From NCBI GenBank assembly GCA_964391595.1, contig CAYMMM010000002.1, forward strand, positions 16,843 to 80,842: a stretch of 64,000 nucleotides of DNA, read 5' to 3'. The position numbers and the translations under genes were made by a program. This document shows positions 1 through 17,979 of this stretch, piece after piece. Origin of the DNA: an uncultured Candidatus Saccharibacteria bacterium (lineage in GTDB: Bacteria > Patescibacteriota > Saccharimonadia > CAILAD01 > GCA-016700035). Under the pieces are notes generated by a model. It was not told where the DNA came from. It saw only the letters and a list, made by a program, of their open reading frames with translations, and searched no databases. Each line of letters begins with the position of its first letter. Within the stretch, counting starts at the first letter, position 1.

Positions 1-918
1 ATTGCAGTCGCTTATGTCACAGCTCACGACCTGCGTAGAGCCGTCGCTTTTTGCATACTCCATCTTCATGAGATTCTGAAGTGCATATTTATTACTAGTA
101 CTTGTACCATCCGTGAAGTCTTTGGGCATCTTACAGCTATACCCTGCTGGACTTGCAGTCTGACACTTCGCATCAACGACGCTATTGAGATCGACATCAT
201 TGCGTGTAGACCAGTTTGAGAAATCAGTCACATTAGTGCCTGTTTCGAGCTCTGCTGGAGACAATAGCACACTGCGCACAGGTAGTGCCTTGCCATCGAC
301 CAACTTGTCAGTAGCGGGAATACCTGCTTTCGGGTACCATATGCCGGTCACCTGCATTACAGCAGCCCTGCCCTCCCATGCGCTAGAGGTTGGAAGCGCT
401 TTATTCCCCTGTACAGCAGCGCCTATCGCGTTTGCGCTGTCGTAATCTGACTTATTCCACTCTAGTGACATGTATTTGATCGAAACCGCATTATTGCTCG
501 CGTTTTTTGCTTTGCTCAGATCAATTGTCACCGCCTGATCCTTGTCGAGTCTACCTTCGACGGAGTTTGATTCGAGTGAGATTGTGCGACAGGTCCACGC
601 AGCATTTGCGCTTGTGTCACCAATCTGGTGGGGGTCGCCTCCATCGCTCTGGTTGCAAGTCTTCTCGTTCTCAGCGAAACCAATATCATCGTTGAGCCGA
701 CGAACGGCATCCTCCACACCTGCCTGTGCGGCGTAGAGAGCCCGATTCGACTGATCGGTTGCAATCGACTGCTTCACTTCACGCGTAGCAATCGTAGTCA
801 AGCCGACGAACAGTACGATCAGTACTGCTGAAATTGCCACGGTAGTCAGCAATGCTGCCGAACCCTGGTGACGAGCCCTCAAATATCGTTTCACTCGATG
901 AACCATAACTAGTTTCAT
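1..918 (-). CDS. PilX-like minor pilin/pseudopilin. ATG at 916-918; reading frame stays open to position 1, so the C-terminus is truncated by the window edge.
   Basis: I translated the minus frame by hand: MKLVMVHRVKRYLRARHQGSAALLTTVAISAVLIVLFVGL..., a basic N-terminus followed by a hydrophobic helix. This resembles PilX (QRGxALIVxL). It is the last gene of the minor-pilin string. The supplied ORF track does not list it because no stop codon lies inside the window. Confidence 0.5.
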   Translation of the reverse strand, partial: MKLVMVHRVKRYLRARHQGSAALLTTVAISAVLIVLFVGLTTIATREVKQSIATDQSNRALYAAQAGVEDAVRRLNDDIGFAENEKTCNQSDGGDPHQIGDTSANAAWTCRTISLESNSVEGRLDKDQAVTIDLSKAKNASNNAVSIKYMSLEWNKSDYDSANAIGAAVQGNKALPTSSAWEGRAAVMQVTGIWYPKAGIPATDKLVDGKALPVRSVLLSPAELETGTNVTDFSNWSTRNDVDLNSVVDAKCQTASPAGYSCKMPKDFTDGTSTSNKYALQNLMKMEYAKSDGSTQVVSCDISDCN

Positions 919-957
919 AGTACTACAATCTGGCGTGCCTGCAAACGCCTACAGGTG

Positions 958-1572
958 CTACTGGTGCACAACATGTGTTGTAAGCACAGTTGATGCAGCA
1001 AAGGTATCGGTATTCGCCGCATCAGGATCACACGGGTTACGTTCCCCATGTGAGACACGGACCGTCACCTTCCAGGTCTTCGGCTCGACTGCCTTACCCT
1101 CATTGGCATCTTCTATTGTAAATGCATCTGTACAGCTAGGTGAGACTGATGTTGACCAGACTGGCGATGGTACAAGTAGCTGATAGTCATTTAGTGAGCT
1201 GCAGGACTGAAGCCGCGCGAGGTGCGCCTTCCCATCACTCATCTGGAGCAGTGCATACCCACGATCGACACCCCCTCGATCATCTTTGAGACACGTCACG
1301 GTATTTGTACTAGCGCCAGTAGTAGTAAGTGGACCGTTCTTCACTTCTATTTCACTCGTGTGCCCAAGATCACGGGAGAGTACGCTTATCGCATCACGCG
1401 CCGCACTCTGGGTACGCGTCAGCCCCTGGGCGCGGTTGTAAAGTCCAAGGATATTGACGAAGCTTAGTGTCGCACCAAGTACCAAAGCCGATAAAAAAGC
1501 AATCGAAAACATCAGCTCGATAAGCGTGTAGCCGCGGCGGTTGGTGTGGGTTAATGTAGGTCTCTTCATCAT
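958..1572 (-). CDS. Prepilin-type minor pilin (PilW/PilV-like position)
   Basis: N-terminus MMKRPTLTHTNRRG|YTLIELMFSIAFL carries the class III signal/N-methylation motif (G|xTLIEL). It lies inside the pilin gene string. Confidence 0.6.
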   Translation of the reverse strand: MMKRPTLTHTNRRGYTLIELMFSIAFLSALVLGATLSFVNILGLYNRAQGLTRTQSAARDAISVLSRDLGHTSEIEVKNGPLTTTGASTNTVTCLKDDRGGVDRGYALLQMSDGKAHLARLQSCSSLNDYQLLVPSPVWSTSVSPSCTDAFTIEDANEGKAVEPKTWKVTVRVSHGERNPCDPDAANTDTFAASTVLTTHVVHQ

Positions 1573-1573
1573 C

Positions 1574-2164
1574 TTATTCCGTTGGCGCCAGTAGTTGTGT
1601 GGTAGCGATCAGTTGGCTATCTGGATTGCCATTTGCATCATTCCAGCTCACTTTCGCTTGCAAATCAACAGCCGCCACGCCCAAAGGATCACAATTATTC
1701 GGTGCTGCAGGCGGTACGGTTGGTGAAGCAGTTGATTCTCCCACGCAATACAGCCTTTTTGGTGTCACACTATATGTATAGCTGGTGCTGGCGTCTCCCG
1801 GGACGGTAAGGGCTTTGGGGCCATCCTCTATCTTCCACACGCAATCTTCGGTATTGTCACATTTTTCTATACGAACTTCTGGAACACTACCGGCCGGTGG
1901 GTAGAGCTTGCTTAGAAAAACATTCCAATCCATGCGTTCTTGATTTGTAGTTGAATCAGTCATATCTCGGAAGCCACGCAGACGCTCCAGCTGATCTTGC
2001 GCCACATACTGCGCCTGAGTGCGCTGATTTGCAGATACAGCAGTGCGCCATGCGCGCAAGGCTGAAGCATACGCCACCGTCAGCACCGAGCCGATAATCG
2101 CAAAAGCAAACAAGATCTCGATGAGCGTCATGCCGCGCGGCCGAGTGTGAGACGAGCTTCGCAT
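1574..2164 (-). CDS. Prepilin-type minor pilin
   Basis: N-terminus MRSSSHTRPRG|MTLIEILFAFAII is a prepilin leader followed by a hydrophobic helix. It is translationally coupled to its neighbours (2-bp gap on one side, 1-bp overlap on the other). Confidence 0.6.
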   Translation of the reverse strand: MRSSSHTRPRGMTLIEILFAFAIIGSVLTVAYASALRAWRTAVSANQRTQAQYVAQDQLERLRGFRDMTDSTTNQERMDWNVFLSKLYPPAGSVPEVRIEKCDNTEDCVWKIEDGPKALTVPGDASTSYTYSVTPKRLYCVGESTASPTVPPAAPNNCDPLGVAAVDLQAKVSWNDANGNPDSQLIATTQLLAPTE

Positions 2165-2889
2165 CAGTGTGTCACCAGCCTATATGATGTATTTTTGAAG
2201 TTGAATACAATCTCAGCATGAAACCTCGGGTCGCTACCATTTTTCTCGACACTGACGAACTGCAAAACCAAACCGCAAGGTGAGCTTGCAGTTGCTCCCC
2301 CTGGTGTGGAGTGATCACCGCCCCAATTTGCGTAGTTTACAGACGGACCACCCGCTTGAAACTGATTAAATGCAACTGGCTCACGACGAAAGGTCACGGT
2401 TTGTGGAGGCCTAGGAATCTCAGGAAGAATATTATAGTTTGATAATACATCAGGATCATTGAGCTTCATGCAGTCCAAATTCTCCGAACCACGATACACG
2501 ATACCATTCGGCAGGAAAGCATCAATCTTAGGGCTAAAGGTGTCTGCAGGCGCAATGCCATTAGGCAAGATTCCGGCATCATCATACTCCGCCATATAGA
2601 GCCCCGACACAATGTGTCGATCATTACTCGGATCGAGCGTGACAGCCGATGCAAATATCTGATGATTTGGAGGAAGCGGATTTGGAAGCTCATTCGTATT
2701 AATGCCAGTTTGCACGAGCTTGATCTGAGACTCGATCTGACGCACCCCATCATAGAACTGCGCGCTGGCCTGTGAGCTGTACCACATAAAAGACCCCGCC
2801 ACGAGCAATGACGACAGCGCAAGAGTAATCGTAAGCTCGATCACAGTGAGCCCTGTAGGATAATACTGTCTCGGTGTAAGGCGTCCCAT
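2164..2889 (-). CDS. Prepilin-type minor pilin (FimT/FimU-like position)
   Basis: N-terminus MGRLTPRQYYPTG|LTVIELTITLALSSLL is a prepilin leader plus hydrophobic helix. It is the first gene after pilD. Confidence 0.55.
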   Translation of the reverse strand: MGRLTPRQYYPTGLTVIELTITLALSSLLVAGSFMWYSSQASAQFYDGVRQIESQIKLVQTGINTNELPNPLPPNHQIFASAVTLDPSNDRHIVSGLYMAEYDDAGILPNGIAPADTFSPKIDAFLPNGIVYRGSENLDCMKLNDPDVLSNYNILPEIPRPPQTVTFRREPVAFNQFQAGGPSVNYANWGGDHSTPGGATASSPCGLVLQFVSVEKNGSDPRFHAEIVFNFKNTSYRLVTH

Positions 2890-2942
2890 ATCTCTTAGCA
2901 GTATACCACTTGTGCTTTGGTGTGGTCAGGTCTGAGCGCGGT

Positions 2943-3752
2943 CTATCCAAGCAAACGGAGATATAGATCCAGCAAACGATCCCCCCAGAAATACCCGACA
3001 TACATACCGATAATCAAGAATGGCCCGAAGGCAATCACATCCTTGCGCGTCTTGAGCTTGAGCGCAATGAGCAAAATCCCGACAAACGCACCGATGAAAT
3101 ACGTGGCAAATATCCCTACAACCAGCTGCGACGGTGTCAGCATGAGCCCCATAAGCACCGCCAGACGAATATCGCCGTCCCCGATCCACTTCTCCCCCGA
3201 TCCGTACCACATAAGTGTATAAAAGCCGCCAAAGAGCGCTGCTCCTATGAGTTGAGAAATCGCCAGACTCGACTCGTGATACCCAAACCAACGCACCAGT
3301 AGCCAGACGAGAGCCACGCCAATTGCCGGAAACATGAACTCGTCTGGAAGCTCTAGGTGTAGCCAATCATAGACGAAGGCGGCGATCATCAACGTCGTCA
3401 CGATGACCCAAACGCCGAAGGTGGCAATCGAGCGCAGGTCAGTCGGATTGACAGAGACAAAGAGCCCGATCCAGGCACCTGCAGTCGCCAGCTCAACCAG
3501 CGGATACTGCCAGCTGATGCGCTTGTGACAGGTGCGGCACTTCCCGCGCAAAGCCATAAAGCTCAGCACCGGTATCAGCTCGTACCATGCCAGCTGGCGA
3601 TGGCAGTGGGTGCACTTGCTCCTACCTTGTGAGACCTTCTTGCCATGCGCCATGCGCCAGATCCAGGCATTGAGAAAGCTGCCGATGAGGAGGCCATAGA
3701 TACCGACGAGTACCGAGATAAGAATAAGCGGTGTCTGCATGCCTACCATCAT
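2943..3752 (-). CDS. pilD: Prepilin peptidase / N-methyltransferase PilD (A24 family)
   Basis: Polytopic membrane protein with the N-terminal Zn tetracysteine motif CTHC...CRTC and conserved Asp regions. It sits next to the pilin genes. Confidence 0.85.
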   Translation of the reverse strand: MMVGMQTPLILISVLVGIYGLLIGSFLNAWIWRMAHGKKVSQGRSKCTHCHRQLAWYELIPVLSFMALRGKCRTCHKRISWQYPLVELATAGAWIGLFVSVNPTDLRSIATFGVWVIVTTLMIAAFVYDWLHLELPDEFMFPAIGVALVWLLVRWFGYHESSLAISQLIGAALFGGFYTLMWYGSGEKWIGDGDIRLAVLMGLMLTPSQLVVGIFATYFIGAFVGILLIALKLKTRKDVIAFGPFLIIGMYVGYFWGDRLLDLYLRLLG

Positions 3753-3829
3753 ACAATATCTCGGATGAGCTTCTGCACGCTCGTACTAAAAAAGGCCCGA
3801 AGACCTCATTTAGTAAGATATGCGAGAAC

Positions 3830-4273
3830 TTACGGCCCTACTGAAGTGGATACTGAAGTGGATACCGTAACGCTACTATCGCCGGTATATGTATCACCTG
3901 ATTCTAGGCATATGTTACCGACCTTATTCACACCAACTGACGTTAGCCAGATGGTGGTACGATCTGTTGAATTTTTACAGTCGATCACATTATCATTTGT
4001 GCTTAAGGTCATAGTTATGCCTTGCACTTTCAGATTCGTAACATACCCCCCGAGGTCATTCGCATGTGTCGGCTGATCTCCGCTGTGATTTCCGGCGTAC
4101 GCCTGAGCTGCTGCAGTCACTTGGTTGACGAGATTCTTGCGAGCGTTGTCTCGCTGTGCACGCTGTGCTCCTTGTACGGCGAAGAATACACCTACCATGA
4201 TCAAGGCAGCGATAGCCAGCACGATCACGACTTCGATCAGTGTAAAGCCTTTTCTTACTTTGTTGTTATTCAT
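3830..4273 (-). CDS. Major pilin (PilA-like) with an S/T-rich C-terminal tail
   Basis: MNNNKVRKG|FTLIEVVIVLAIAALIMVGV is a canonical type IVa prepilin leader. The protein is short (147 aa), which fits a major pilin. It lies between pilC and pilD. Confidence 0.75.
   Translation of the reverse strand: MNNNKVRKGFTLIEVVIVLAIAALIMVGVFFAVQGAQRAQRDNARKNLVNQVTAAAQAYAGNHSGDQPTHANDLGGYVTNLKVQGITMTLSTNDNVIDCKNSTDRTTIWLTSVGVNKVGNICLESGDTYTGDSSVTVSTSVSTSVGP
3842..3865. repeat. Perfect tandem 12-bp repeat (actgaagtggat x2) encoding STSVSTSV at the pilin C-terminus
   Basis: Direct reading of 3841-3865. The repeat lies in frame with the pilA-like CDS. Confidence 0.8.
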
Positions 4274-4355
4274 AATTGCTCATTCCTCCGAAATAAAAAT
4301 GCGACCGATTAAATGCTTATGCTTATCATATCAAAACACCGATTGGCGTCAACCA

Positions 4356-5564
4356 CTACAGCCCCCCGCCAACCAAGGCATACACTGGATACAGAATACC
4401 AAGGATGATGACCATCACCATGAAGCCAAGAAAGATAATGATAATCGGCTCGATAAGGGTTGAGATGTTCTTGATTAGCTGATCGACCTCGTTCTCATAG
4501 AAGGAAGCCAGCTTATCGAGCATCTCACCCATCGTGCCTGAGTCTTCGCCGACCTTGACCATCTGCCCGACCAGTGGCAAGAAATATTCTGTCTTGCCAA
4601 GCGCATCTGACAGGGCGCGCCCCGACTTCACTTGCTCTGCGACAACCCGTGTCTCAGCCTCAAGGATGAGATTATTCACACTATCACCGACCAGCTTAAG
4701 CGCCTCAAGGATTGGAATACCACTACTTGTGAGCCCACCAAGCGTGCGTGCGAAGCGAGACATATACATCTTCGTAAAAAGTTGGTTCATCGGCGGGAGG
4801 ACCAATTTCGCGCGGTCCATCACCTTGCGCCCATTGTGTGACTTGAAGTAGATATACAGACCATAGATCACAGCGGCAATCGCAGGGATGATAATCAACC
4901 AATACTTCCCGAAGATATCAGTGGTACTTATGATTACTTGAGTCAAAAACGGCAATGTTTTATTAAAGCTCTTATACAGCGCGGAAATCTGCGGCACCAC
5001 ACTCGAGAGCATATAAATGAGCACCCCGATGATAACTACCATAACTAGGGCTGGGTAGACCAAGGCGCCGCGGATCTTGGACAAGATCTCGGCTTCTTTC
5101 TCTATCTGATCAGCCAGTCGCAGCATAGTTGTATCAAGTGATCCGCTCGCTTCTCCAGCTTGCACCATAGCGACATAAATGTGGTTGAAGCAATCTGGAT
5201 ACTGTGCCAAAGCCTGCGAAAATGCCGTACCTCCCTCTACCGACTTGGAGATGCGAAAAATGATATTTTGCAGTTTTTTATTATCAACTTGCCCGAGCGT
5301 ACTATTGAGCGCTGTGCCGACGGGCAATCCAGCCTTGATGAGCGTAGCCATCTGACGCGTAAAGATTACGCGAGCTTTGAGGGGCACATGCCCAGACGTC
5401 GCTCCTGCACCGAGTACGCTACCAGATTTTGGCTTGATCTCAACTGGATAGAGTTTTTGCTTCAGAAGCAACTTACCGGCTGCCATCTCGCTATCAGCCG
5501 AAATCAAGCCTTCAATCACGCGACCGGTGACAGTATCTTTGGCTTTGTAGCGATAATCAATCAT
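4356..5564 (-). CDS. pilC: Type IV pilus platform protein PilC (GspF family)
   Basis: 402 aa with the two repeated T2SF domains and three TM segments characteristic of PilC/GspF. It sits between pilT and pilA. Confidence 0.9.
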   Translation of the reverse strand: MIDYRYKAKDTVTGRVIEGLISADSEMAAGKLLLKQKLYPVEIKPKSGSVLGAGATSGHVPLKARVIFTRQMATLIKAGLPVGTALNSTLGQVDNKKLQNIIFRISKSVEGGTAFSQALAQYPDCFNHIYVAMVQAGEASGSLDTTMLRLADQIEKEAEILSKIRGALVYPALVMVVIIGVLIYMLSSVVPQISALYKSFNKTLPFLTQVIISTTDIFGKYWLIIIPAIAAVIYGLYIYFKSHNGRKVMDRAKLVLPPMNQLFTKMYMSRFARTLGGLTSSGIPILEALKLVGDSVNNLILEAETRVVAEQVKSGRALSDALGKTEYFLPLVGQMVKVGEDSGTMGEMLDKLASFYENEVDQLIKNISTLIEPIIIIFLGFMVMVIILGILYPVYALVGGGL

Positions 5565-5573
5565 TCGCGCCCC

Positions 5574-7100
5574 CTATCGCCGCATCAGACGATCAAATTC
5601 ATCAAGATTCACCGCGTAGTACTTTGCTTCTTCGTAGCTGATCTTCCCTTCCTGGACGAGGTGCCCAAGCGTTGCATCCATGGATTGCATGCCAAACTCA
5701 GCACCCGTCTGAATCATGCCGTCTATTTGGTGAGTCTTGCCCTGTCGAATCACATTGCGCACAGCCGGAGTCACCATAAGGATTTCAGCTGCAGCCAGGC
5801 GTCCGCCGCCAATCATCGGCACCAGACGCTGCGCGACAATCCCTTGCAAGATACCGGAGAGCTGTATGCGAATCTGCTGCTGCTGGTGGGGTGGGAAGAC
5901 ATCGATCATACGATCAATTGAGCTAGCTGCGGAGTTGGTGTGCAATGTCGCGAGCACTAAGTGACCCGTCTCGGCCACTGTAATGGCGGTAGAGATGGTT
6001 TCGAGGTCGCGCATCTCACCGATCAAAACTACATCTGGGTCTTCGCGCAAAGCACTACGCAAAGCGGCCGCAAAGCTCGGTGTATCGAAGTGTACCTCAC
6101 GCTGAACGACAATCGACTTCTTATGGTGGTGTTGGTATTCGATCGGGTCCTCGATAGTAATGATGTGCATTGCCTTCTCACGATTGATCTTGTCGACCAT
6201 GGCAGCCAGTGACGTGCTCTTCCCGGAGCCCGTGGGCCCTGTCACAAGCACCAAGCCACGCGGAAACTCGGTCATTTTGTTGACGATCGCAGGTAAGCCT
6301 AGCTCTTCGACCGTACGAATCTTGTTTGGGATGAGACGGAATGCACTTGCGGGGTTCCCCTTCTCATGGAAGGCATTAACACGAAAGCGACCGAGATCAC
6401 CATACGCAAATGAGAAGTCAATTTCTTTGTCGTGGGTATAGATTTCTTTTTGATCGTCGTCGAGCAAGCCAAAAATTATTGAGTCAATATCATCGGCGCT
6501 CAGCTCTTTGCTGCTTCGTATCGGAGTAAGCGCTCCATCTACGCGCAGCATGGCGGGCAAACCCACTTGCAAATGTATATCAGATGCATCACGGCGAATC
6601 ACTTCTTCTAGGTAGGGCTCGATCGAGGCGTTCCCCCCGCTCGAACGAATATTGTGCACTTGATCAGCCTCAGATACAGCTGGAGCGTTCTTAGAGTCTG
6701 GGAGCATTTCATTACCCATCTCTGCTGGCGAGCTCGCAGAAGATACTGATGGTGCAGAGGTAGCACTAGTGCTAATATTCGCGCTGTTCTGCTGAGGTGA
6801 TGGCGGCAGTGAGGGAGGCATGGACAAGTCCTCGTCATCGAGACCAGTAGAAGGCATGATGATTGGGTTCGCCTGGGCGTCAGCAGAGCCTGTAGCTACG
6901 GCTGGCGCTATATTCTCTACCATTGGCTGAGCCGCCGAGGGAACTGCTTGATTCGAGGTGGCAAGAGGGTTTTGCGCACTCACTATACCCGCTGTCGTCA
7001 AACCATCCGTCGCACTGGATGGCGCCGACGGCATACTCCCAGCTTGCAGAGGCTGAGGCGCTGCGGGGGGCATAGATGGGGTTGTGTTCGTTGGGGGCAT
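5574..7100 (-). CDS. pilT: Twitching-motility retraction ATPase PilT with a ~160-aa Pro/Ser/Ala-rich N-terminal extension
   Basis: The core starting at ...IEPYLEEVIRRDASDIHLQVGLPAMLRVDG carries a Walker A motif (GPTGSGKST), a Walker B motif, the Asp box and the His box of the PilT family. The residues ahead of the core are low-complexity. Confidence 0.85.
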   Translation of the reverse strand: MPPTNTTPSMPPAAPQPLQAGSMPSAPSSATDGLTTAGIVSAQNPLATSNQAVPSAAQPMVENIAPAVATGSADAQANPIIMPSTGLDDEDLSMPPSLPPSPQQNSANISTSATSAPSVSSASSPAEMGNEMLPDSKNAPAVSEADQVHNIRSSGGNASIEPYLEEVIRRDASDIHLQVGLPAMLRVDGALTPIRSSKELSADDIDSIIFGLLDDDQKEIYTHDKEIDFSFAYGDLGRFRVNAFHEKGNPASAFRLIPNKIRTVEELGLPAIVNKMTEFPRGLVLVTGPTGSGKSTSLAAMVDKINREKAMHIITIEDPIEYQHHHKKSIVVQREVHFDTPSFAAALRSALREDPDVVLIGEMRDLETISTAITVAETGHLVLATLHTNSAASSIDRMIDVFPPHQQQQIRIQLSGILQGIVAQRLVPMIGGGRLAAAEILMVTPAVRNVIRQGKTHQIDGMIQTGAEFGMQSMDATLGHLVQEGKISYEEAKYYAVNLDEFDRLMRR

Positions 7101-7140
7101 ACGTATTGGTAGATTCGTTGTGTTGTCGCTCTTCTGCGAC

Positions 7141-8931
7141 TTAATATTCAGTAGCGACGCGCGATACTTCCTCGATAGTCGAGATCCCAGTCAGGGCCTT
7201 AAGGAAGCCGTCTTGTTGCATTGTAAGCATGCCATCCTTCACTGCCTGATCCTGAATCTCGGTCGTTGTAGCATGTGAGAGCAAGAGCTTCTCCATAGCT
7301 GGGTTCATATTGTAGACCTCAAAGATCCCAATGCGACCAGCGTAGCCGTCCTTACAATCGCTACAGCCTTCCCCCTTATATAAAGTATAAGCGGTTTCAC
7401 TGTATAAGGGCAAACCTTCGTACCCATACTCCTGAGCCTTGGCCTTCAATTCCGCATTAGTCTTTGGTAGGAAGCCACCGATCACTTTGTTGATCATCTG
7501 GATAGCTGCGGGCGATGCGGCATACGGCTTCTTACACTTCTGGCAGACCTGCCGAACCAAACGCTGCCCGATGACGGTGTTTACCGTAGAAGCGATCAGG
7601 AAGGGCTCGATCTTCATGTCGAGAAGGCGCGGCAACACACCAGACGCGGAGTTGGTATGCAATGTCGAGAGTACAGTATGTCCTGTGAGTGCCGCTTGCA
7701 CAGCAAGGTCGGCCGTCTCGGAGTCACGGATCTCCCCTACCAACACAACATTTGGATCTTGTCGCAAGATCGAACGTAACCCATTCGCGAAGGTTAGGCC
7801 CACGGCGGTATTCACTTGAATTTGGTTGATCCCCTCCATCTTGTACTCCACCGGATCTTCAAGAGTCACAATGTTGAGCGTCACACTCTTGATAGCCTGT
7901 ACAACCGCGTAGAGTGTGGTCGACTTACCTGAGCCAGTCGGACCAGTCGAAAGGATCATGCCGTGGGGCTTGTGCATTCCTTCCTGGATCAATCTCAGAC
8001 TCAGCCCGCGAAAGCCAAGTACATCGAGCGTGATCTGGTGAGCATTTTTGTCCAAGATACGAATAACGACTTGCTCACCGTATGTGATTGGGGCGATTGC
8101 AATACGAAGATCCACCTCTCGCCCTTCATACATGTAGATCGCTTGACCATCCTGGGTCATGCGATGCTCATCGATCTTGAGGTTCGACAAGATTTTGATA
8201 CGTGAAATGAGTGCTGCTTCAGTAGACTTTGGAAGCGTCATTACCTCTTGTAGCAGCCCGTCGACGCGAAAACGAATCTTCAGCTCATGCTGACGTGGCT
8301 CGACGTGAATATCGGAAGCCTTTGAGTTAATCGCGTACTCGAGAATAGTATTGAGCGCACGGGTAATTGGCGCGTCTTGAACGATATCCTGAGAAGCCTT
8401 AGTTTGCTGTGTGGCCTTCGTGGCAGCTGCTTCGTCTTTGTCGGCCAGCGCGACATCCTTCAATACATCTGCGACTTCCTTGCTATACCGCTCCGTGTAC
8501 ATACCGAGGACATGATTAATGCCCGCTTCAGAGGCGATGTATGTTGTAATCGGATAGCCAGATTTGCGTGAGATAAAATCAATCACCTGTAGGTTGGTCG
8601 GATCAAGCATCGCGACATTGAGCGTACCATTTGAGATGCCAAAAGGTACCGCCATATATTCTCGGGCTGTCTCAAGCGGCATAAGCTCGGTGAGCTTTTT
8701 ATCAATCGCCTTATCGAGATGTAAGAGATCGGCAAATGGGATCTTCTTAGCAATGGCGATCATCTTCACGGAGTCTTCTTCGTTGATCGCCTTCATGTCT
8801 AGCAACACTTGAAGTAAACCACGATTTTCTTTGACTGCGCGCAGTTTTGCAATCTCAAGCACATCCGGCTGCACGAGCTTGCCTTTTGTGATCAGAGTCT
8901 CGATTTGGCGCTGATTATCTAGCGTCAGCAT
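7141..8931 (-). CDS. pilB: Type IV pilus assembly ATPase PilB (GspE family)
   Basis: 596 aa with N-terminal GSPII domains, a Walker A motif (GPTGSGKST) and a tetracysteine motif (CxxC...CxxC). Confidence 0.9.
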   Translation of the reverse strand: MLTLDNQRQIETLITKGKLVQPDVLEIAKLRAVKENRGLLQVLLDMKAINEEDSVKMIAIAKKIPFADLLHLDKAIDKKLTELMPLETAREYMAVPFGISNGTLNVAMLDPTNLQVIDFISRKSGYPITTYIASEAGINHVLGMYTERYSKEVADVLKDVALADKDEAAATKATQQTKASQDIVQDAPITRALNTILEYAINSKASDIHVEPRQHELKIRFRVDGLLQEVMTLPKSTEAALISRIKILSNLKIDEHRMTQDGQAIYMYEGREVDLRIAIAPITYGEQVVIRILDKNAHQITLDVLGFRGLSLRLIQEGMHKPHGMILSTGPTGSGKSTTLYAVVQAIKSVTLNIVTLEDPVEYKMEGINQIQVNTAVGLTFANGLRSILRQDPNVVLVGEIRDSETADLAVQAALTGHTVLSTLHTNSASGVLPRLLDMKIEPFLIASTVNTVIGQRLVRQVCQKCKKPYAASPAAIQMINKVIGGFLPKTNAELKAKAQEYGYEGLPLYSETAYTLYKGEGCSDCKDGYAGRIGIFEVYNMNPAMEKLLLSHATTTEIQDQAVKDGMLTMQQDGFLKALTGISTIEEVSRVATEY

Positions 8932-8939
8932 GCCACCCC

Positions 8940-9221
8940 CTACTGCCCAAAGATATTTTTATTGCCACCACATTTGTCTGGCTTGTCGATACACTTCTGT
9001 GGCGTAGAGTAGTCATTGAGGAGCTTGATGTCTTTGAGCTTATCGGCAGCGGTAGGCTTCGACGTACTTGCCTGATCGAGCGGAATCTTCACTGGACGAG
9101 GCACACTAACCTTAATACCACTATCTTGTGGTGCTGGCGCTAGCTGTGAATACAGAAGCACACCGGCAGCCACGAAGATCGCAATAGCTACAACCAGTCC
9201 AATCATATCGCGACGCTTCAT
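8940..9221 (-). CDS. Small single-TM protein in the pilMNO operon (PilP-like position)
   Basis: 93 aa, with an N-terminal TM segment (IGLVVAIAIFVAAGVLLY) and a C-terminal CxxxxxC pair. It overlaps the pilO stop codon. Confidence 0.4.
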   Translation of the reverse strand: MKRRDMIGLVVAIAIFVAAGVLLYSQLAPAPQDSGIKVSVPRPVKIPLDQASTSKPTAADKLKDIKLLNDYSTPQKCIDKPDKCGGNKNIFGQ

Positions 9222-9928
9222 TACTTCGCGCCCTCCGGATTTTTCTGATATTCACTCAACAATACCGATGAGTCTGTGATGCTCGGTTTGGCCTTGTAGT
9301 ACAACTTGTAGGTCATATCGAGTGTCAACGCATTACCACTCCCAGACAATTTGAGATTTGAAAAATCAAACACACGCTGCGAAGACTCGATTGCTTTCAG
9401 GAAATTCTTGATCTGTTCATACGTACCCGTAGATTTGAAGCTTAACTGGAAAGACTCTGCCTTCGTGCTCGTGGGAATAGTACTCGAGCTACCCGTAGCG
9501 GCCGTACGAGTCTCCTTGGATACATTATCAATCTGTACCAATGTCTGCGTCTGAAGCTTTTGGAAAATCGTCAGGATCGTACCTAGGTCATCTGTAGCGG
9601 GCAATACGCGCTCTGTTATGCGTGAAAAATCAGATACACCGCTCGAGTCTGCGACCTTGATCTTGTTGAGCTCTGGCTCTGCCTTAGCGAGCATGTCTAT
9701 CTTTGTTTTTGACAACGAGATCTGAATGTCTTGAGCTTTTATCTCGTTAGACTTGAGTATATTCGCCTGTGCTAGCTGATACACGAAGTATCCGCCGATA
9801 AGCACAATCAGTGTGGTCGCAGTGATCATGATAATCAAGAAATTACGCATCGTAGTCTGCTGTGACTGCGTCATCTTGGTCTCAGGAACCTGTATCTTAC
9901 GCGAAGATTCTGAAGCTTTTGGTGCCAT
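9221..9928 (-). CDS. PilO-like inner-membrane pilus alignment protein
   Basis: Single N-terminal TM segment with a coiled-coil/periplasmic domain. Its position after pilN is the typical one. Confidence 0.55.
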   Translation of the reverse strand: MAPKASESSRKIQVPETKMTQSQQTTMRNFLIIMITATTLIVLIGGYFVYQLAQANILKSNEIKAQDIQISLSKTKIDMLAKAEPELNKIKVADSSGVSDFSRITERVLPATDDLGTILTIFQKLQTQTLVQIDNVSKETRTAATGSSSTIPTSTKAESFQLSFKSTGTYEQIKNFLKAIESSQRVFDFSNLKLSGSGNALTLDMTYKLYYKAKPSITDSSVLLSEYQKNPEGAK

Positions 9929-9930
9929 AC

Positions 9931-10569
9931 CTACGATCCCTGCCCCGTGTTCTTTGCATCATTGCGAAACTTCTGTACTAAGTCCTTGTCTACCGTAAAA
10001 CTCACATTAAACTCTTTTTGATCACCGCTTGCTCGATTCTTTCGACTAGAAACTGAGTCAATTTTTACGTTTGTAAAGACTTGCTTGAGATCAAGACCTT
10101 GTACGCTACGTTCTTTAAACGTGTTGTATGTGTTAAGTGCACTACCGAAGAGGGCTACGGTATTGAAATCTGGTGCAGTAACTACTGCCTTGACCTGATA
10201 CCCTGGATCTACCGATAATGACGTCATCTTCACGTCCTTTGGCAGCGAGTCAGTTAGGCGATCAAAAAGCTGACTGATCAAGATTCGGTTATTACTGACG
10301 TCGTATGAAGCATCCAGCGATTCATTAAACCACGCCACATCTTGCTCAGTAGCCTGCTTGGCTGCTATGTCTTTTTTCAATGACTCGATCGTTGTGTTAT
10401 TCGTGTTGTACTGCAAAGTACGCGTACCTAGGAGCAACAGTAGAATGATAATCGAAGCACCGACGCTCGTCATAATCAGCCCACAAATAACCGTAATCAA
10501 CCTTCGTGTTTGCTGATTTTTGAGCTTGAGTATACGTGCTTCTGGGAGAAGGTTTACACGCAACGACAT
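9931..10569 (-). CDS. PilN-like protein
   Basis: N-terminus LRVNLLPEARILKLKNQQ followed by a TM segment is the hallmark of PilN. It follows pilM directly. Confidence 0.65.
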   Translation of the reverse strand: MSLRVNLLPEARILKLKNQQTRRLITVICGLIMTSVGASIIILLLLLGTRTLQYNTNNTTIESLKKDIAAKQATEQDVAWFNESLDASYDVSNNRILISQLFDRLTDSLPKDVKMTSLSVDPGYQVKAVVTAPDFNTVALFGSALNTYNTFKERSVQGLDLKQVFTNVKIDSVSSRKNRASGDQKEFNVSFTVDKDLVQKFRNDAKNTGQGS

Positions 10570-10570
10570 A

Positions 10571-11608
10571 TCACACCATATTCCTTAGAGCGAGACCGAC
10601 AGCAGTCGAATACGACAGGGCCATACCTGCAAGCCGATCGGTAAAGTCACGTGAGTAGCTGATCTTCTGCCAAGGGTTCCCCATCTCTACAGCTAAGCCG
10701 ATTGCGTTAGCAAGATACACCGGCAGCTCTGGCATGGCAGCTGGCCCGCCAGTAATCACGATTTTCTCGATCTTGCCAGGATTGCCTTGACTGTAGAAGA
10801 AGTCAACGGACTTGCGAATCTCATCTACGACGTTATCGATGAGTGGTTTCATAGCCCGGAAGACTTGCCCCTCGAGCTTCGTTTGCGTCATGCCAAACTT
10901 ACGTACGAACTGCTCGGCCTGAACTTCATCGAGCCCAAGGTTTTGTGCCGTCACACGTATGAGTGACTTGGCACCAATATTGACCGAGCGAATAAGTCCT
11001 GTCACACCCTTCGAAACGAGGGCTATATCGGTCGTCAGCGACGTGAAATCCACGACAACCACATCCATATCTGCGGCTGGCACCATAGCCCGAGCCTGAG
11101 CGATAGCATTCACATCGAGTGCCATGAGCTCGAGACCAGCCGACTGGAAGATCCCGAGATACTTATTTGCTACTACGGTTGGTGTTGCAACCAGGAGCAC
11201 GTCGATCTCTGGCACAGTCTTGTCTTGTGTAATCTTCGTAAAATCTAACTTCACTTGATCGAGCGGCATAGGGATGTATTTATCCGCCTGATACCGAATT
11301 GAGTGTGCGATCTCTTGCTCGGTCATCTGAGGCATCTTGATGATGCTCGCAAAGACCTTACTCGCAGGTAGACCGGCGACAACATTCTTTGTGCTGACAC
11401 GTGCGTCACTGGACAATTGCTTCACAGCAGCAGCTACCCGCTCGAGGTCAGCAGGCGCATCAGAGCTCAAAATACCCTGTGGCAATTCAATATCACCGTA
11501 CGTTACTAACGTAGGTTTATCATGGATATGCTTGAGCTCAACGAGACGAATCCCGGAGTTCCCGAGATCGACACCAAAGTAATGTTCGTCTTCTGTGAAT
11601 ACTTGCAT
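10571..11608 (-). CDS. pilM: Type IV pilus assembly protein PilM (actin-like ATPase)
   Basis: 345 aa with FtsA/PilM-like motifs (GVDLGNSGIRLVEL; DVNAIA) and the typical position before pilN. Confidence 0.85.
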   Translation of the reverse strand: MQVFTEDEHYFGVDLGNSGIRLVELKHIHDKPTLVTYGDIELPQGILSSDAPADLERVAAAVKQLSSDARVSTKNVVAGLPASKVFASIIKMPQMTEQEIAHSIRYQADKYIPMPLDQVKLDFTKITQDKTVPEIDVLLVATPTVVANKYLGIFQSAGLELMALDVNAIAQARAMVPAADMDVVVVDFTSLTTDIALVSKGVTGLIRSVNIGAKSLIRVTAQNLGLDEVQAEQFVRKFGMTQTKLEGQVFRAMKPLIDNVVDEIRKSVDFFYSQGNPGKIEKIVITGGPAAMPELPVYLANAIGLAVEMGNPWQKISYSRDFTDRLAGMALSYSTAVGLALRNMV

Positions 11609-11708
11609 ATTGGTTATGGATAATTCCTTCTTAATTTTACCATAACTACTTTGTAGAATACGTGCTTATCACACAAAGATTTGAGTGAAATATGATGTCG
11701 TTGCCTAG

Positions 11709-14700
11709 CTAGAACTTCGGCGTGAAGTTACCCTGTAGATAGAAGAGAGAGCCCGAATTACCATCTGGAAGCAGGTCGAATCCTGGAGGGGTGGTGATGA
11801 GATTCACGCCATTGCCAATGATCTCCTCAGCGGGACCACCATAATATTTATCGGCAGACTGGTAGTCAAAATTAGGGTCTGAGATACCACGCGCCTGTTG
11901 ATACTCAAAGTGATTCCGTCCGAGTTCGAAGCCGCCAATCGCATACAAACCACCACGCACCACAAGCTTCTCGCTACACTTTTGTGCTGCATCCTTATCG
12001 GTCGTACCAGTTGATGCCGGATACACATCACAGGTCTTAATCTTGCCTGTTGCGAAGATCATCGCATCCAACTCGGTCACAGCAGAGCTGATAGTTACAT
12101 CTCCATTGACGATGATGCCAAAGGCCGGGAATTGCTGTGTGAGACTGGCGAGGTCATTCGCGCCCCCACCGGGACTGCTGACAATGTTCGCATTGATGGT
12201 GAGATTACCCTCATGCACAAGCGAGACCTTGCCTTTTTTGATCGTCCAGTTTCCGCCGCCAGTTGGCTGCTTGAGCGTACCGCCGTTAGCCTGCAGTATT
12301 ACATCACAGTAGCCTCCTTTGGGGTCGCTAACCGTGTAGTCACCCGTGGGCTTCATCTGACTGGTGATATCGGCGGGAGCAACCACACTGGTGCGGCGGG
12401 CTGCACTAGCAGCACCTGCATCGATACAGCTAGGATTCGAATCAATGAACGCCTGTATCTTGCTGAAGTATTGCTTACTTTGACTCTGATCCAGTGCCAT
12501 AGCATACGCACCAAAGCTCTGGGCGCATTCATCACTCGTATCTTGACCAAACACATATGCATTTGAGCTACAGAAATCACTTCCACCGACGACAGACATC
12601 ACCAGATACGTTGCGTCTTTTACTGGATCATCAACTTTTCGTGTGCCTCTCGATCCAAGGGTTTGTCCTTCGATTTTGCCGAGCGCTGCTACCGAGCCAT
12701 TCTGCACGCGTAGCCATGGATGGTACGCATATCGCAATGTCGGTGTGATTGGATTACCGCTCGTATTACAAGTTTCACCAAATGGTGTCACAGTCCCGTC
12801 TTGAGCGATAAATGCCATGCGCCAGGTAATCGGCACATTCACAAGTACGGCGTTCGCCTTCGGTTTCAAGCTTACCGTAAACTCTTTAGCATTACCGTTC
12901 GTTATCACCTCTTTATCACCGAGACTACCTCCGGAAGGCTTACCTTGGTCATCCACTACCCAGTAGTCTGTACTCTTACCAGTCAAGATGAGAGCGTGCT
13001 CACCTGTCGTGTAACCATCCGGGAGGACACCATTACGCCACTGCGAATCCCCTGTATTATTCATCGTCATCTTTACATCTATCGATGTATCGGCATCACC
13101 AAGCTCGTCTGGGAAGGCGGCAGCAAGTGAAGTCGCACCGCAGGTAGCTGCATTGGCACATTGATGTGAATATGGAGTAGCAATGCGGAAGACCTCCTGT
13201 CCGGCGTCGTTCCTTACAATCAAGTATACTGTGCGAGAAAGGCCGTCTCGTGCAGGTGCAGGGATTGTCGCGTTGACAGCACCACTCTGCAAGCCTGACG
13301 CAACTACTATATCCTGGTCTTTCTGATTTAAAATAATATCGACTTTCACTCCATCAGGAACCTTGAGGGTGCCCTTCAAAGTGTCGCAAGTGACTGAAGC
13401 GGTAGACGAGAAGCCTATGTCTGGGTCTAGGACCATAAATGTTCGATATGATCTATTTGGCTCTACCGAAATCGCTGCCGTCAGGTCAGACGTAGCAGTG
13501 ACGGGCTTCGAAGCAGCACAACCATCATCGGCCGCATTGATGTCACAGACAATTGTCCCATATGGCTTGAACCCATCCGGAACCTTTGTCATAGAGGTCT
13601 TATAATCTCCATAATACAAGTCACCCTTGACCAAGCTATTCGCTGCGCCTGTAGGAGCGCCTGAAGCACTCGTTGCGTAATTTGTACGCGTACCATCTGC
13701 ATTCAAGTGATCCTTGAGAGCTCCACCTGGCCCAGTTCGACTAATAGACACTGTGCCCGCTCGACATAAAGCTTGTACGTATGCCTTGTCAGAGCTGCAA
13801 GGATTGATCATGGTGCCATCCTTAGGGTTGCGAATATATACCGCTGTACTTACAGTGGAAGGCCTCGGCGCATATAGCCATCGTGTTTCGACAGTGGTTC
13901 CGGGATACATCACCGGTATGTCGTATACACGATCACCCGATGTGGTACCTCCAACAGATCCGTCTAGCGCACGGTAGAGACCAGTATACCCATCTTGTGT
14001 CCAATCATCAGTATCATCAGCCACCATACGGTTGGTTTTGGTCGGATCTACATTGTAGAAGAAGTATGGGTTTGAAGTACTTACTGCAGCACCGAGATGC
14101 ACGCCGGCGTCAGTAAACTCACCCGCTGGTGGAAGAGAGCCATCTGGCTTGCGTTCCACCTTATAACCATTGACCGAGGTCGACGCAGTATTTGACTCTA
14201 CGAATTCGAAGTATATAAATGACTCAACGCCGTTCTTTGCATATATTTCTACAGCCTTACCATCGAAACCATAGTCCTTGTCCGAGCGACCCCCTGACTG
14301 GAAATGCCAGTATCCTATCCAGTGTCCCTTCTTTGTACTACCTCCATATGATATCTCAGTACTACTCCCGGCAACGCTTACATTCAGCTTAAACTCACCG
14401 AGCGGAATACCCTGAGAGTCACCACACCATACCAACTGACTGTACGATCGATAGCCAAAGTCACCGCGTTTAAATACATCTCCCGCGGTTCCCTCATTGG
14501 TCTTGAATACGATAGAGTTCGTCGTAGGATTTCCGCCTCCCGGTGACAAGTTATGACCATTGTAAGGGGAGTTCGCTATAGGAATGTCTGGGCCATTTGA
14601 CGGCGTGCGCGGCACTACCTTTACCGTTACATCTAGGTCTTTAATCGGGTGTAATTTACCCGAGAGATCCTGGTAGCCTAGGCCTACGCTCAGGTCAGCC

Positions 14701-14792
14701 GGATTGCTTGCCGAAGCATGATGTGTGCCCAAGATAAGTGACGCTACGAGACTCAAGCCGGCTATATAAGTGAATCGCATCAGTCGTTTCAT
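11709..14792 (-). CDS. Large (1027 aa) secreted, Cys-rich surface protein at the head of the pilus operon. Function unknown; candidate adhesin or pilus-associated protein.
   Basis: Signal peptide (MKRLMRFTYIAGLSLVASLILGTHHASA) and many Cys, Gly, Thr and Asp residues, with no TM segment after the signal. It has the same orientation as pilM and sits 100 bp upstream of it. Confidence 0.6.
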   Translation of the reverse strand: MKRLMRFTYIAGLSLVASLILGTHHASASNPADLSVGLGYQDLSGKLHPIKDLDVTVKVVPRTPSNGPDIPIANSPYNGHNLSPGGGNPTTNSIVFKTNEGTAGDVFKRGDFGYRSYSQLVWCGDSQGIPLGEFKLNVSVAGSSTEISYGGSTKKGHWIGYWHFQSGGRSDKDYGFDGKAVEIYAKNGVESFIYFEFVESNTASTSVNGYKVERKPDGSLPPAGEFTDAGVHLGAAVSTSNPYFFYNVDPTKTNRMVADDTDDWTQDGYTGLYRALDGSVGGTTSGDRVYDIPVMYPGTTVETRWLYAPRPSTVSTAVYIRNPKDGTMINPCSSDKAYVQALCRAGTVSISRTGPGGALKDHLNADGTRTNYATSASGAPTGAANSLVKGDLYYGDYKTSMTKVPDGFKPYGTIVCDINAADDGCAASKPVTATSDLTAAISVEPNRSYRTFMVLDPDIGFSSTASVTCDTLKGTLKVPDGVKVDIILNQKDQDIVVASGLQSGAVNATIPAPARDGLSRTVYLIVRNDAGQEVFRIATPYSHQCANAATCGATSLAAAFPDELGDADTSIDVKMTMNNTGDSQWRNGVLPDGYTTGEHALILTGKSTDYWVVDDQGKPSGGSLGDKEVITNGNAKEFTVSLKPKANAVLVNVPITWRMAFIAQDGTVTPFGETCNTSGNPITPTLRYAYHPWLRVQNGSVAALGKIEGQTLGSRGTRKVDDPVKDATYLVMSVVGGSDFCSSNAYVFGQDTSDECAQSFGAYAMALDQSQSKQYFSKIQAFIDSNPSCIDAGAASAARRTSVVAPADITSQMKPTGDYTVSDPKGGYCDVILQANGGTLKQPTGGGNWTIKKGKVSLVHEGNLTINANIVSSPGGGANDLASLTQQFPAFGIIVNGDVTISSAVTELDAMIFATGKIKTCDVYPASTGTTDKDAAQKCSEKLVVRGGLYAIGGFELGRNHFEYQQARGISDPNFDYQSADKYYGGPAEEIIGNGVNLITTPPGFDLLPDGNSGSLFYLQGNFTPKF

Positions 14793-14797
14793 ACCGC

Positions 14798-15850
14798 TTA
14801 TCCCTTCGCCAATGCTAATTGCAGTGTATAATAATCTGCCACGGCCTGTCCGCGCAACAACGTGGTCAGCTTCACGAAGACATAACCAACCTGGCGCTGC
14901 TTCCCGCTTGCCGGGTAGCCAGGATCAGCCTGAATTGTCCCAATCGACGTAATGCCGAGTTGGTTTTGTGCTTGGAGGAATGCATCTAGAGAGCTGCCAC
15001 GGCCATCATCATTGATTGGGATTCCACTAGAGAGTGAGGTCTTGTACAGTGCAGAGCCGTTTGCCTCATCATAGAGCTGCAAACGATTGTCTGCCTCTAG
15101 TGCGTTCACTATCGCATCTTCAGTTATCTCGCCCTTCTGCAATTTTGTACGATATTCGTTTGCCTTTGATTCAGCGTAAGCCTTGTCTTCGGCCAATGCA
15201 TTTGCATCCCCCCATCCAGCTATGTTTTCCTCAGGTAGCTTGTTGACAATCGTACGGCCGTACCAGAAATAAAACACATACCCCTCGTAGTAGCCAGTAG
15301 TCTTAATGAGCTCGAGCTTCTTGTCGATAATCGCGTTATAGGCCTGTACTACTTGTTCTCTTGTGGGTGACACGCCTATAAACTGAGTAAACTGGTTCAG
15401 ATCCTCTTGTGTCGGTGCAAATCCTGCGACATATGCTGCCATATACTTGGGACCGATGTCGGCACGGACCTTTGCTCGATCATCCTCGGTCAACGAAGCT
15501 ACAGGCGCGCTCGAATTAAATGCATCGACGGCCTTCTGTTTGGTATTCTCATCTGAAAGCGTTGGCTTCTCTTGGCCATTGATCGTCGTTGGCTTGCGAG
15601 TGAAGTACAAGTAGCCAGCACTAATCACGCCGATGAGCAGCACCGGTATCAGGACGAATTTCAGCAGCTTAGCAAACAAGCCACCTCGACCCTTCCCCAC
15701 GTCGCCAGTAGCAGTACGACTACGATAAGACTTCGTTTCTGGCGTTTCCTTCCGGGATAGCACTTGTGATGGACGCACAATAGAGCCGGGCTTAGCTGGC
15801 TTCGGATCTCCGTCCTTCTTTGTGCTCAGACTATCAATCGTGCGGGGCAT
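14798..15850 (-). CDS. Membrane-anchored hypothetical protein with a disordered basic N-terminus, one TM segment and an extracytoplasmic domain
   Basis: 350 aa. A TM segment (LLKFVLIPVLLIGVISAGYLYF) follows an N-terminus rich in K, P and S. It is separated from the large protein by only 5 bp. Confidence 0.5.
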   Translation of the reverse strand: MPRTIDSLSTKKDGDPKPAKPGSIVRPSQVLSRKETPETKSYRSRTATGDVGKGRGGLFAKLLKFVLIPVLLIGVISAGYLYFTRKPTTINGQEKPTLSDENTKQKAVDAFNSSAPVASLTEDDRAKVRADIGPKYMAAYVAGFAPTQEDLNQFTQFIGVSPTREQVVQAYNAIIDKKLELIKTTGYYEGYVFYFWYGRTIVNKLPEENIAGWGDANALAEDKAYAESKANEYRTKLQKGEITEDAIVNALEADNRLQLYDEANGSALYKTSLSSGIPINDDGRGSSLDAFLQAQNQLGITSIGTIQADPGYPASGKQRQVGYVFVKLTTLLRGQAVADYYTLQLALAKG

Positions 15851-15980
15851 ATTTTTTCCACGTCATAATACTTACGTCTATCTTAGCGTGGAGCTATATC
15901 GAGCGCAAGCACTTTGACTCCTTCATCGTAGGACAAATGAACACCTGACAATGCTCGCTGCCATCTGGTACAATAACCAG

Positions 15981-17063: not shown

Positions 17064-17068
17064 AAAAT

Positions 17069-17869
17069 CTATCTTTGACCTTGCGGCAAACCAATTTCAC
17101 CCTGCAAGCCATACATCCTGTCACCCTGCACAGTAATCCCGTGCACCCTGGCCGCGAGTCTCGTACCATCCCTTAGTTGGTCAATGAAATCTCCCTCAAC
17201 GGCATACACCATCGGCGAAAAGACCGTCTCTCCCTGACTATTCCATGAGAAAGAGTTGTATGGATCGTAAATGACCTGACCCTCCTCGTCCTCAAGAAGA
17301 ATATAGCCATGCCCTGCTAGATAATCACTCCCGATATCTGCCATACCGCCAGATATATATTTCGATTTGATACCACAGGCTTGAAAAACTTGCTGAGCCA
17401 CCACGCTAATCTCAGTGCACTTCCCGCATTGTTTTTCTACAACGTCCGAGATAGACCGCGCATGTTTTGCTTTGTAATATGTACTTCGCAATCGATTTCG
17501 GTTCGGGTTATTACCCAGTCCCCTTTTTCCTAAAGCAGCATTCACTGCCATGATTTCTGCCATCAACTTCGGAGTCACTTTTCCAGCTATATTTAATACC
17601 GGAACTATCGTCTCGACATATTCTTGTATCGATTCAGGGGTTACGTCATCAGCTATATCACTTGCGAGGCCTTCGGTGTCAATTACCATATATGCAAGTT
17701 CGTCCTGCCGAAACAAGCCCTGGGCAGTAGGGATAATGTGTCCGTCGACTAGTTTATGAGTAGTAAAATTTACGCTATTGACTGAGGGGGTAAATTCGGT
17801 CAAGTCGATAGATGGAACGATCGGCTCGCTGTCGGCTTCCCCCGTTTCGCGCTCGGCATGATTGGTCAT
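17069..17869 (-). CDS. Transglutaminase-like (Cys-His-Asp) domain protein
   Basis: The core QCGKCTEISVVAQQVFQACGIKSKYISGG...GHGYILLED...IYDPYN fits the transglutaminase-like cysteine protease fold pattern (C...H...D). There is no signal peptide. Confidence 0.5.
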   Translation of the reverse strand: MTNHAERETGEADSEPIVPSIDLTEFTPSVNSVNFTTHKLVDGHIIPTAQGLFRQDELAYMVIDTEGLASDIADDVTPESIQEYVETIVPVLNIAGKVTPKLMAEIMAVNAALGKRGLGNNPNRNRLRSTYYKAKHARSISDVVEKQCGKCTEISVVAQQVFQACGIKSKYISGGMADIGSDYLAGHGYILLEDEEGQVIYDPYNSFSWNSQGETVFSPMVYAVEGDFIDQLRDGTRLAARVHGITVQGDRMYGLQGEIGLPQGQR

Positions 17870-17979
17870 ACACGAAGTATAGCTTATATATATGTGCTAA
17901 ATAACTCACTACCATGTAGCACCCAATTAACTCAATGGAGAAAGATATACGAAAGCCCAGTCCGAAGACCGGGCATAGT

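Follow-up and report, generated by a model that had tools for sequence, protein, structure and literature searches.

We analyzed a 64-kb stretch of DNA (64,000 nucleotides, hereafter the window) of contig CAYMMM010000002.1 from an uncultured Saccharibacteria bacterium, in which the predicted genes at window positions 1–15850 very probably encode a complete, retractile, secretin-less (monoderm-type) type IVa pilus (T4aP) machine, corresponding to the Saccharibacteria type IV pilus (T4P) locus known as T4P-1. The open reading frame (ORF) listing and translations revealed an unbroken minus-strand run of 15 co-directional genes, in the 5′ to 3′ order 350-aa bitopic protein, 1027-aa secreted protein, pilM, pilN, pilO, 93-aa membrane protein, pilB, pilT, pilC, pilA, pilD, and four minor pilins, with a PilX-like gene last. 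The window start truncates this last gene, which reaches a full length of 424 aa on the parent contig, where a convergent integrase lies downstream of it and the cluster ends. The cluster is real but ordinary, being orthologous to a system that has been described and characterized genetically: given that its gene order equals that of published T4P loci, and that the absence of PilQ from pilus operons of Candidate Phyla Radiation (CPR) bacteria was already pointed out in 2015 (PMC4508563), it is not unusual. An initial annotation of the same DNA had listed these T4P genes in this order on the minus strand, and ORFs, translations and hidden Markov model matches supported every core assignment. 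The extent that it gave, 1–14792, describes a real block, but one that reaches further, to 15850, and whose last gene runs past the window start.

The PilM-PilN-PilO alignment subcomplex expected of a T4aP was present. PilM matched PilM_2 over its full length (Pfam, E = 8.4e-48) and PilN scored 26.7 bits against the gathering cutoff of 22.8 for Pfam PilN. PilO alone was sub-threshold (Pfam PilO, E = 0.005), but six of its eight orthologues matched the Pfam PilO family (best 4.6e-7), and a profile built from the eight had only one significant match in the PDB, Myxococcus xanthus PilO (3jc8, 2.2e-5). The extension ATPase PilB carried T2SSE (1.2e-123) and MshEN (4.7e-14) domains (Pfam), and its translation shows a Walker A motif (GPTGSGKST) and CxxC...CxxC; its best NCBIfam match was type_IV_pilB, with 525 bits, below the equivalog cutoff of 676. 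The retraction ATPase PilT matched TIGR01420 (pilT_fam, 469 bits with a cutoff of 319) over residues 160–498, as well as T2SSE, and the AVRNVIRQ stretch in its translation matches the AIRNLIRE signature of PilT proteins. A polytopic platform protein, PilC (two T2SSF domains, E = 2.4e-62), and an A24 prepilin peptidase, PilD (A24_N_bact, 9e-31; Peptidase_A24, 3.5e-10; paired CxxC...CxxC and GDGD in the translation), were also found. The PilM/N, T2SSE, T2SSF, N_methyl and A24 profiles suggested as a check in the initial annotation all matched, with PilO reached through the orthologue profile.

Class III pilins were represented by PilA and three minor pilins with a G/xTxIE signal, and N_methyl or TIGR02532 backs three of the pilins. 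PilA has a class III signal peptide (KG/FTLIE), two C-terminal cysteines and a Ser/Thr/Val-rich tail, and matched both N_methyl (1.9e-8) and TIGR02532. Among the minor pilins, the 196-aa protein matched N_methyl (2.6e-5), with weak N-terminal PilV/GspI matches in NCBIfam, and the 204-aa protein fell just under the N_methyl cutoff (4e-4) and exactly at that of TIGR02532. The 241-aa protein had no family match in the Pfam and NCBIfam scans; it has a transmembrane segment at residues 12–35, a glutamate at +5, and orthologues in the related loci L001–L003. In the PilX-like pilin, the N-terminal helix is hydrophobic and has no Glu5 (...HQGSAALLTTV...), and the match to PilX_N reached only E = 0.84. 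In another relative, L017, the first minor-pilin slot (L017:18075-19856) is occupied by a 593-aa N_methyl protein, a much enlarged modular pilin.

In Nanosynbacter lyticus TM7x, T4P locus one spans TM7x_00415–00475 and consists of pilM1, pilN1, pilO1, TM7x_00430, pilB1, pilT, pilC1, pilA1, pilD, pilV1, pilZ1, pilW1, and pilX1 (Grossman et al., 2025, ISME J, PMC12206443, Table S3). Compared by gene order, the window cluster equals this locus gene for gene from pilM on, with pilT inside the locus, unlike in T4P-2. Both have a retraction ATPase and neither has PilP or PilQ, and TM7x PilX1 was reported to have neither Glu5 nor a canonical PilD site (PMC12206443); the PilX-like pilin described here likewise has no Glu5. 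On the other hand, the beta-solenoid protein encoded upstream of pilM in the window is not listed in the TM7x locus. An identical pilM-to-pilX order is found in T4P1 of Southlakia epibionticum, a 13-gene cluster (SEML1_0104–0116) adjoining a divergent ychF (Wang et al., 2023, Cell, PMC10633639) and mostly scored as class I essential by transposon sequencing (Tn-seq; PMC10633639, Table S1). While ychF abuts pilM in S. epibionticum, the 350-aa and 1027-aa genes lie between them here. T4P-1 has been tied to retraction and twitching (Grossman et al., PMC12206443), and Xie et al. (2022) showed that the cluster is conserved across TM7 genomes and that twitching and host association are quercetin-sensitive. 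An essential, retractile and twitching-associated function, for which all experimental knowledge comes from TM7x, TM7i and S. epibionticum, would by analogy extend to the organism studied here, and the link to host attachment and twitching made in the initial annotation agrees with the shared gene order of the cluster, TM7x T4P locus one and S. epibionticum T4P1. Pilus diameters in Saccharibacteria have been reported to be unusually thin. More distantly, the T4aP core of Clostridia and Streptococcus sanguinis comprises PilB, PilT, PilC, PilD, PilM, PilN/O and pilins, and no secretin. These systems share their core set with the window cluster, but differ from it in lineage, gene order and the small bitopic protein; for monoderm secretin-less T4aP, Melville and Craig (2013) is the work cited in PMC4508563.

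The first four steps of the mechanism that we propose apply established T4aP biology to the domain assignments, and the fifth comes from experiments on relatives. PilD would cleave and methylate the prepilins that carry a G/xTxIE signal, namely PilA and three minor pilins, and all four minor pilins, the PilX-like pilin among them, would prime the filament on the PilC platform. PilM, PilN and PilO, probably together with the 93-aa bitopic protein, would form an alignment complex in the single membrane, while a PilB hexamer would power extension and PilT retraction. The filament would cross the wall only, so that neither PilQ nor PilP would be needed. In relatives, the pilus is essential and associated with the twitching that brings the epibiont onto its host, and it may act likewise here.

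Pfam scans covered almost every ORF in the window with a length of 110 aa or more, and no secretin, PilP, BamA or LptD was found among these ORFs or in ~9 kb past the window start. The PilQ and PilP pair that marks a diderm T4aP was accordingly missing from this range, and the cluster itself has neither gene, as initially annotated. The absence had been described as unusual for a cluster this complete, which does not hold, given that missing PilQ and PilP are the norm for monoderm T4P and that the absence of PilQ had been noted for CPR operons in the 2015 study mentioned above. CPR bacteria are regarded as having no outer membrane (bioRxiv 10.1101/2025.01.22.634366), and the monoderm-type architecture proposed initially is consistent with this view and with the secretin-less cluster. 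The LCP and RodZ genes invoked in its favor were also recovered, at 52772–54292 (LytR_cpsA_psr, 5e-39) and 24759–25850 on the minus strand (HTH_25 and a weak RodZ_C match), respectively. The RodZ-like protein additionally has a Glucodextran_B-like beta-sandwich between its transmembrane segment and C-terminal domain, scoring exactly at the Pfam gathering threshold. Neither T4P paralogues nor a second pil set were detected elsewhere in the window by tblastn and Pfam searches, including near recA-recX. The host lineage is Saccharibacteria, as had been proposed from gene content, judging from PilB, which is 65–86% identical to four metagenome-assembled genomes (MAGs) titled Candidatus Saccharibacteria vs 45% to Peregrinibacteria, and from the Saccharimonadales or Saccharimonadia names borne by PilM relatives.

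The 13-gene order, with a large protein encoded ahead of pilM, is shared by four genome MAGs, and the same order, including the small protein and the large upstream protein, was also found in metagenome contigs. It further recurs in three relatives at ~50% PilM identity and in one locus reached from the large-protein side. In back-translated scanning for loci, for which the full alignment was too divergent, a six-sequence sub-alignment yielded only four loci. Beyond the cluster, the neighborhood consists of recA-recX, then S6-SSB-S18-EF-P, and then ychF, which is divergent from the pil block (window 15951–24670). This neighborhood from recA-recX to ychF is kept across Saccharimonadia to ~50% PilM identity (L008, L016, L018 and L019). 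In TM7x, recAX was reported next to T4P locus two, whereas here recA-recX lies ~7 kb from a cluster of the T4P-1 type.

The cluster had been described as a single super-operon with gaps of 0–50 bp and overlaps of 1–4 bp. The lengths of its 14 junctions are −1, −1, 1, 1, 2, 5, 8, 9, 39, 40, 53, 77, 82, and 100 bp. Eight of these are tight enough for translational coupling and the other six span 39–100 bp; four junctions (53, 77, 82 and 100 bp) exceed the range first given, and both gene overlaps are of 1 bp (ATGA). The gaps around pilA measure 82 and 77 bp. Upstream of pilA, we found TTGACG-16-TG-TATGAT, with an extended −10, followed by a GGAGG ribosome-binding site, and after the gene a hairpin, GAGGTCTTCGGGCCTT TTTTAG, with a GC stem and then a T-run. 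The 100-bp gap upstream of pilM carries the motifs TGGTAAAAT and AAGAAGGAA, of which TGGTAAAAT is extended −10-like. As pattern matches, these promoter-like sites lie at the positions that one would expect if the major-pilin gene were boosted and pilM had a separate promoter, and they suggest that pilA expression may be separately boosted inside the cluster. Given the pilA-flanking gaps with promoter-like and terminator-like sites and the 100 bp that separate pilM from the preceding gene, the cluster is likely to comprise several transcription units, and a single transcript, which is unproven, is probably too simple a picture. Transcription probably starts from several promoters; pilA would have a dedicated promoter together with a leaky terminator, an arrangement commonly seen where a major pilin is highly expressed. 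In the relative L018, pilB and pilT are separated by an inserted MazE/PIN toxin-antitoxin pair plus an ORF on the opposite strand (L018:14382-15524), which indicates that the cluster can be interrupted and, in that locus, cannot form one obligatory transcript.

Two parts of the cluster deserve separate mention. Orthologues of the 93-aa membrane protein, of 83–94 aa, fill the slot between pilO and pilB in every related locus examined, although neither Pfam nor NCBIfam contained a matching family. By position, this protein corresponds to TM7x_00430, which is unnamed in the table of TM7x locus one (PMC12206443), and to SEML1_0107 of S. epibionticum, a 75-aa hypothetical gene scored as essential by Tn-seq (PMC10633639). 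We considered and rejected the possibility that it is a PilP analogue: it has no lipobox cysteine, and its ectodomain of ~60 aa is too short for the PilP beta-sandwich. The other part is the stretch of 159 residues ahead of the PilT homology, which starts at residue 160. This extension is Pro/Ser/Ala-rich, probably disordered, and contains short conserved islands such as VENIAPA, LDDED..PPSLPPSP, and DQVHNIRS. Compared with the L003 orthologue, it shows in-frame indels and 60/38/99 differences at the three codon positions, and this third-position excess together with the indels indicates that it is translated. Its length varies from ~0 to 150 residues among relatives; TM7x PilT has 356 aa and no extension, vs 508 aa here, and gene-caller starts on the same contig give a PilT of 499 or 449 aa. 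In L017, pilT was called as two pieces of 307 aa and 35 aa (L017:14372-15443), maybe because of a frameshift or an assembly error.

Upstream of pilM, the 350-aa protein has a K/R-rich cytoplasmic N-terminus, one transmembrane segment at about residues 55–85, and a large ectodomain, with no match in Pfam or NCBIfam. It is the partner of the 1027-aa secreted protein: the two genes are 5 bp apart, an orthologue precedes the large protein in L002, and the two are fused in L003 and L004 (L003:3194-7204 and L004:4067-7297). The 1027-aa protein starts with a Sec signal peptide (...HHASA/SN), continues with Cna-like beta-sandwich modules at about residues 23–460 and a middle module, and finishes with a conserved Cys-rich, beta-solenoid-like domain of ~370 aa that ends in PPPGF...PRF. 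It matched no Pfam or NCBIfam family, its profile gave a best E of 4 against PDB sequences, and a Foldseek search of the C-terminal domain against the PDB returned nothing with E below 2. The predicted structure has a pLDDT of only 61, and beta-solenoids match one another generically. In a word-indexed homology search, the full protein retrieved only itself and a C-terminal domain profile found two proteins, while an exhaustive HMMER search of 1.84 billion representatives found 120 relatives, a narrow family. Across these relatives, the ~370-aa domain is constant and always C-terminal, and the N-terminal modules are shuffled. A family member lies directly upstream of pilM in 11/11 other distinct loci reaching pilM, to ~50% PilM identity, with two or three tandem copies in L013 (L013:3262-10535) and L014, and none upstream of pilM in S. 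epibionticum. Tapirin genes have been described next to a T4P locus in a monoderm, and the 1027-aa protein shares such conserved T4P adjacency. However, it has no sequence similarity to the tapirins of Caldicellulosiruptor or to the tip pilin ComZ of Thermus thermophilus, the likeness being generic, and it has a Sec signal peptide and Cna-like stalk domains instead of the pilin N-terminus of ComZ.

Several observations weigh against the T4P-1 assignment or limit its reach. In this organism, the machine is predicted from its genes, and neither the PilX-like nor the 241-aa pilin has a significant family match of its own. The absence of secretin, PilP, BamA and LptD covers the 64-kb window and ~9 kb beyond rather than the whole genome, and promoter-like and terminator-like sites are no more numerous there than expected from shuffled sequence, within the region scanned around the cluster. 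In TM7x, the 'thick pilus' was assigned to T4P-1 by elimination (PMC12206443). T4P-1 may also serve DNA uptake, although this is not its essential role, given that comEC mutants of S. epibionticum are viable. For this reason, a primarily competence-related pilus, with PilT retraction pulling DNA to ComEC in an organism unable to make nucleotides, is unlikely: S. epibionticum survives without comEC, but its T4P genes are essential (PMC10633639). In bacteria with natural competence, T4P do act together with the Com system, Saccharibacteria are naturally competent (PMC10633639), and recA-recX lies within the window at the distance given above, but the cluster itself contains no comEC, comFC or dprA, and its PilMNO and PilT are the architecture of a T4aP and not of a ComG pseudopilus, with ComGA, ComGC and other ComG models far below their cutoffs. 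In TM7x, T4P-2 is dispensable for competence while T4P-1 is essential, so that the latter may have a role in competence (PMC12206443), and pilus and uptake functions are not mutually exclusive. It is far less probable still, to the point of being hardly credible, that the cluster is a type II secretion system (T2SS) or pseudopilus exporting proteins. Such a system should not have a PilT-family ATPase scoring above its NCBIfam cutoff, a PilB whose best match is type_IV_pilB with the GspE model below cutoff, or PilM/N/O instead of GspL/M/C, and no GspD, GspC or GspL match was found, even though PilB, PilC and the pilins match generic T2SSE, T2SSF and GspG-I models and Wang et al. cite an earlier Saccharibacteria 'T2SS' listing (PMC10633639). 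Moreover, pili of relatives have been seen by electron microscopy and cryo-electron tomography, and surface filaments of PilA orthologues have already been shown in relatives.

With the pil genes themselves best explained as a retractile T4P-1 machine, the place of the upstream pair has to be weighed separately. Most likely, the two proteins form a surface adhesin module outside the core machine, which accompanies the locus in environmental Saccharimonadia. Whether it works with the pilus is a closer question. We lean slightly toward the 1027-aa and 350-aa proteins being a general adhesin cassette that sits between ychF and pilM with no functional tie to the pilus, as the promoter-like motifs in the 100-bp gap that separates it from pilM, the variable number of family copies (1 to 3) and the Sec signal peptide in place of a pilin N-terminus would all be compatible with mere neighbors, and T4P1 of S. 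epibionticum is functional and essential with ychF abutting pilM (PMC10633639). What speaks against simple coincidence is that a member of so narrow a family (120 among 1.84 billion representatives) is upstream of pilM in all 11 other loci, including one that was reached from the adhesin side. A tentative reading, which we regard as possible but rather doubtful, is that the family is a dedicated T4P-1 accessory, either a host-recognition adhesin docking on the PilX-tipped pilus or a wall-spanning exit guide, and one that the most reduced, mammal-associated lineages would have lost.

Table 1. Predicted features of the T4P-1-type cluster and its upstream pair, in window coordinates.
Feature	Position	Strand	Basis
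Bitopic membrane protein, 350 aa	14798..15850	-	ORF; one predicted transmembrane segment
Sec-secreted modular surface protein, 1027 aa	11709..14792	-	
pilM, actin-like cytoplasmic alignment protein	10571..11608	-	PilM_2, E = 8.4e-48, full length
pilN, bitopic alignment protein	9931..10569	-	Pfam PilN; transmembrane residues 23-53
pilO, bitopic alignment protein, 235 aa	9221..9928	-	Orthologue profile
93-aa bitopic membrane protein	8940..9221	-	Transmembrane residues 3-31
pilB, extension ATPase	7141..8931	-	T2SSE and MshEN
pilT, retraction ATPase, 508 aa	5574..7100	-	TIGR01420
pilT N-terminal extension, 159 codons	6624-7100	-	Residues before PilT homology
pilC, inner-membrane platform	4356..5564	-	T2SSF, two domains
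Sigma-70-like promoter site upstream of pilA	4325..4352	-	Consensus match only
pilA, major pilin, 147 aa	3830..4273	-	N_methyl, TIGR02532
Terminator-like hairpin and T-run just past pilA	3792..3807	-	Pattern match only
pilD, prepilin peptidase/N-methyltransferase	2943..3752	-	A24_N_bact and Peptidase_A24
Minor pilin, 241 aa, TM7x PilV1 position	2164..2889	-	TG/LTVIE, N-terminal transmembrane segment
Minor pilin, 196 aa, TM7x PilZ1 position	1574..2164	-	RG/MTLIE, N_methyl
Minor pilin, 204 aa, TM7x PilW1 position	958..1572	-	RG/YTLIE
PilX-like minor pilin, first 306/424 codons	1..918	-	Position, YAAQAGVE motif, TM7x PilX1 orthologue position

The remainder of the window contains housekeeping genes (ychF, EF-P, SSB, S6, recA, FtsK, RNase J, UDG, PNPase, TruB, holA, Fpg, PolA, rpoD, and dnaG) and wall-related genes (RodZ-like, Mur ligase, LCP, CapA-like and others), and an Rfam scan of the whole window found no family. 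Six ORFs (178–368 aa) had no significant Pfam family, namely 17069–17869, which had a weak transglutaminase-like match (E = 0.001), 18584–19480, 34344–35261, 46683–48470, 54289–54825, and 60655–61254. An 88-aa ORF at 15894–16160 on the minus strand was rejected as a gene, as it overlaps the beginning of ychF in antisense orientation, and the conservation that it seems to have in relatives is a shadow of ychF on the other strand.

Few determinants of the epibiotic lifestyle of Saccharibacteria have experimental support, T4P-1 among them, and the intact presence of this locus in an environmental relative confirms how conserved it is, while adding no new principle. For those working on CPR pili, the cluster offers leads in the unnamed small bitopic protein, the adhesin-like beta-solenoid family, and the variable PilT N-terminal extension, which, if disordered, could represent a regulatory or localization handle. 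If the accessory role considered above were true, the family of the 1027-aa protein would be a CPR-specific partner of the pilus that has not been described before, an analogue of tapirins, PilY1 or ComZ.

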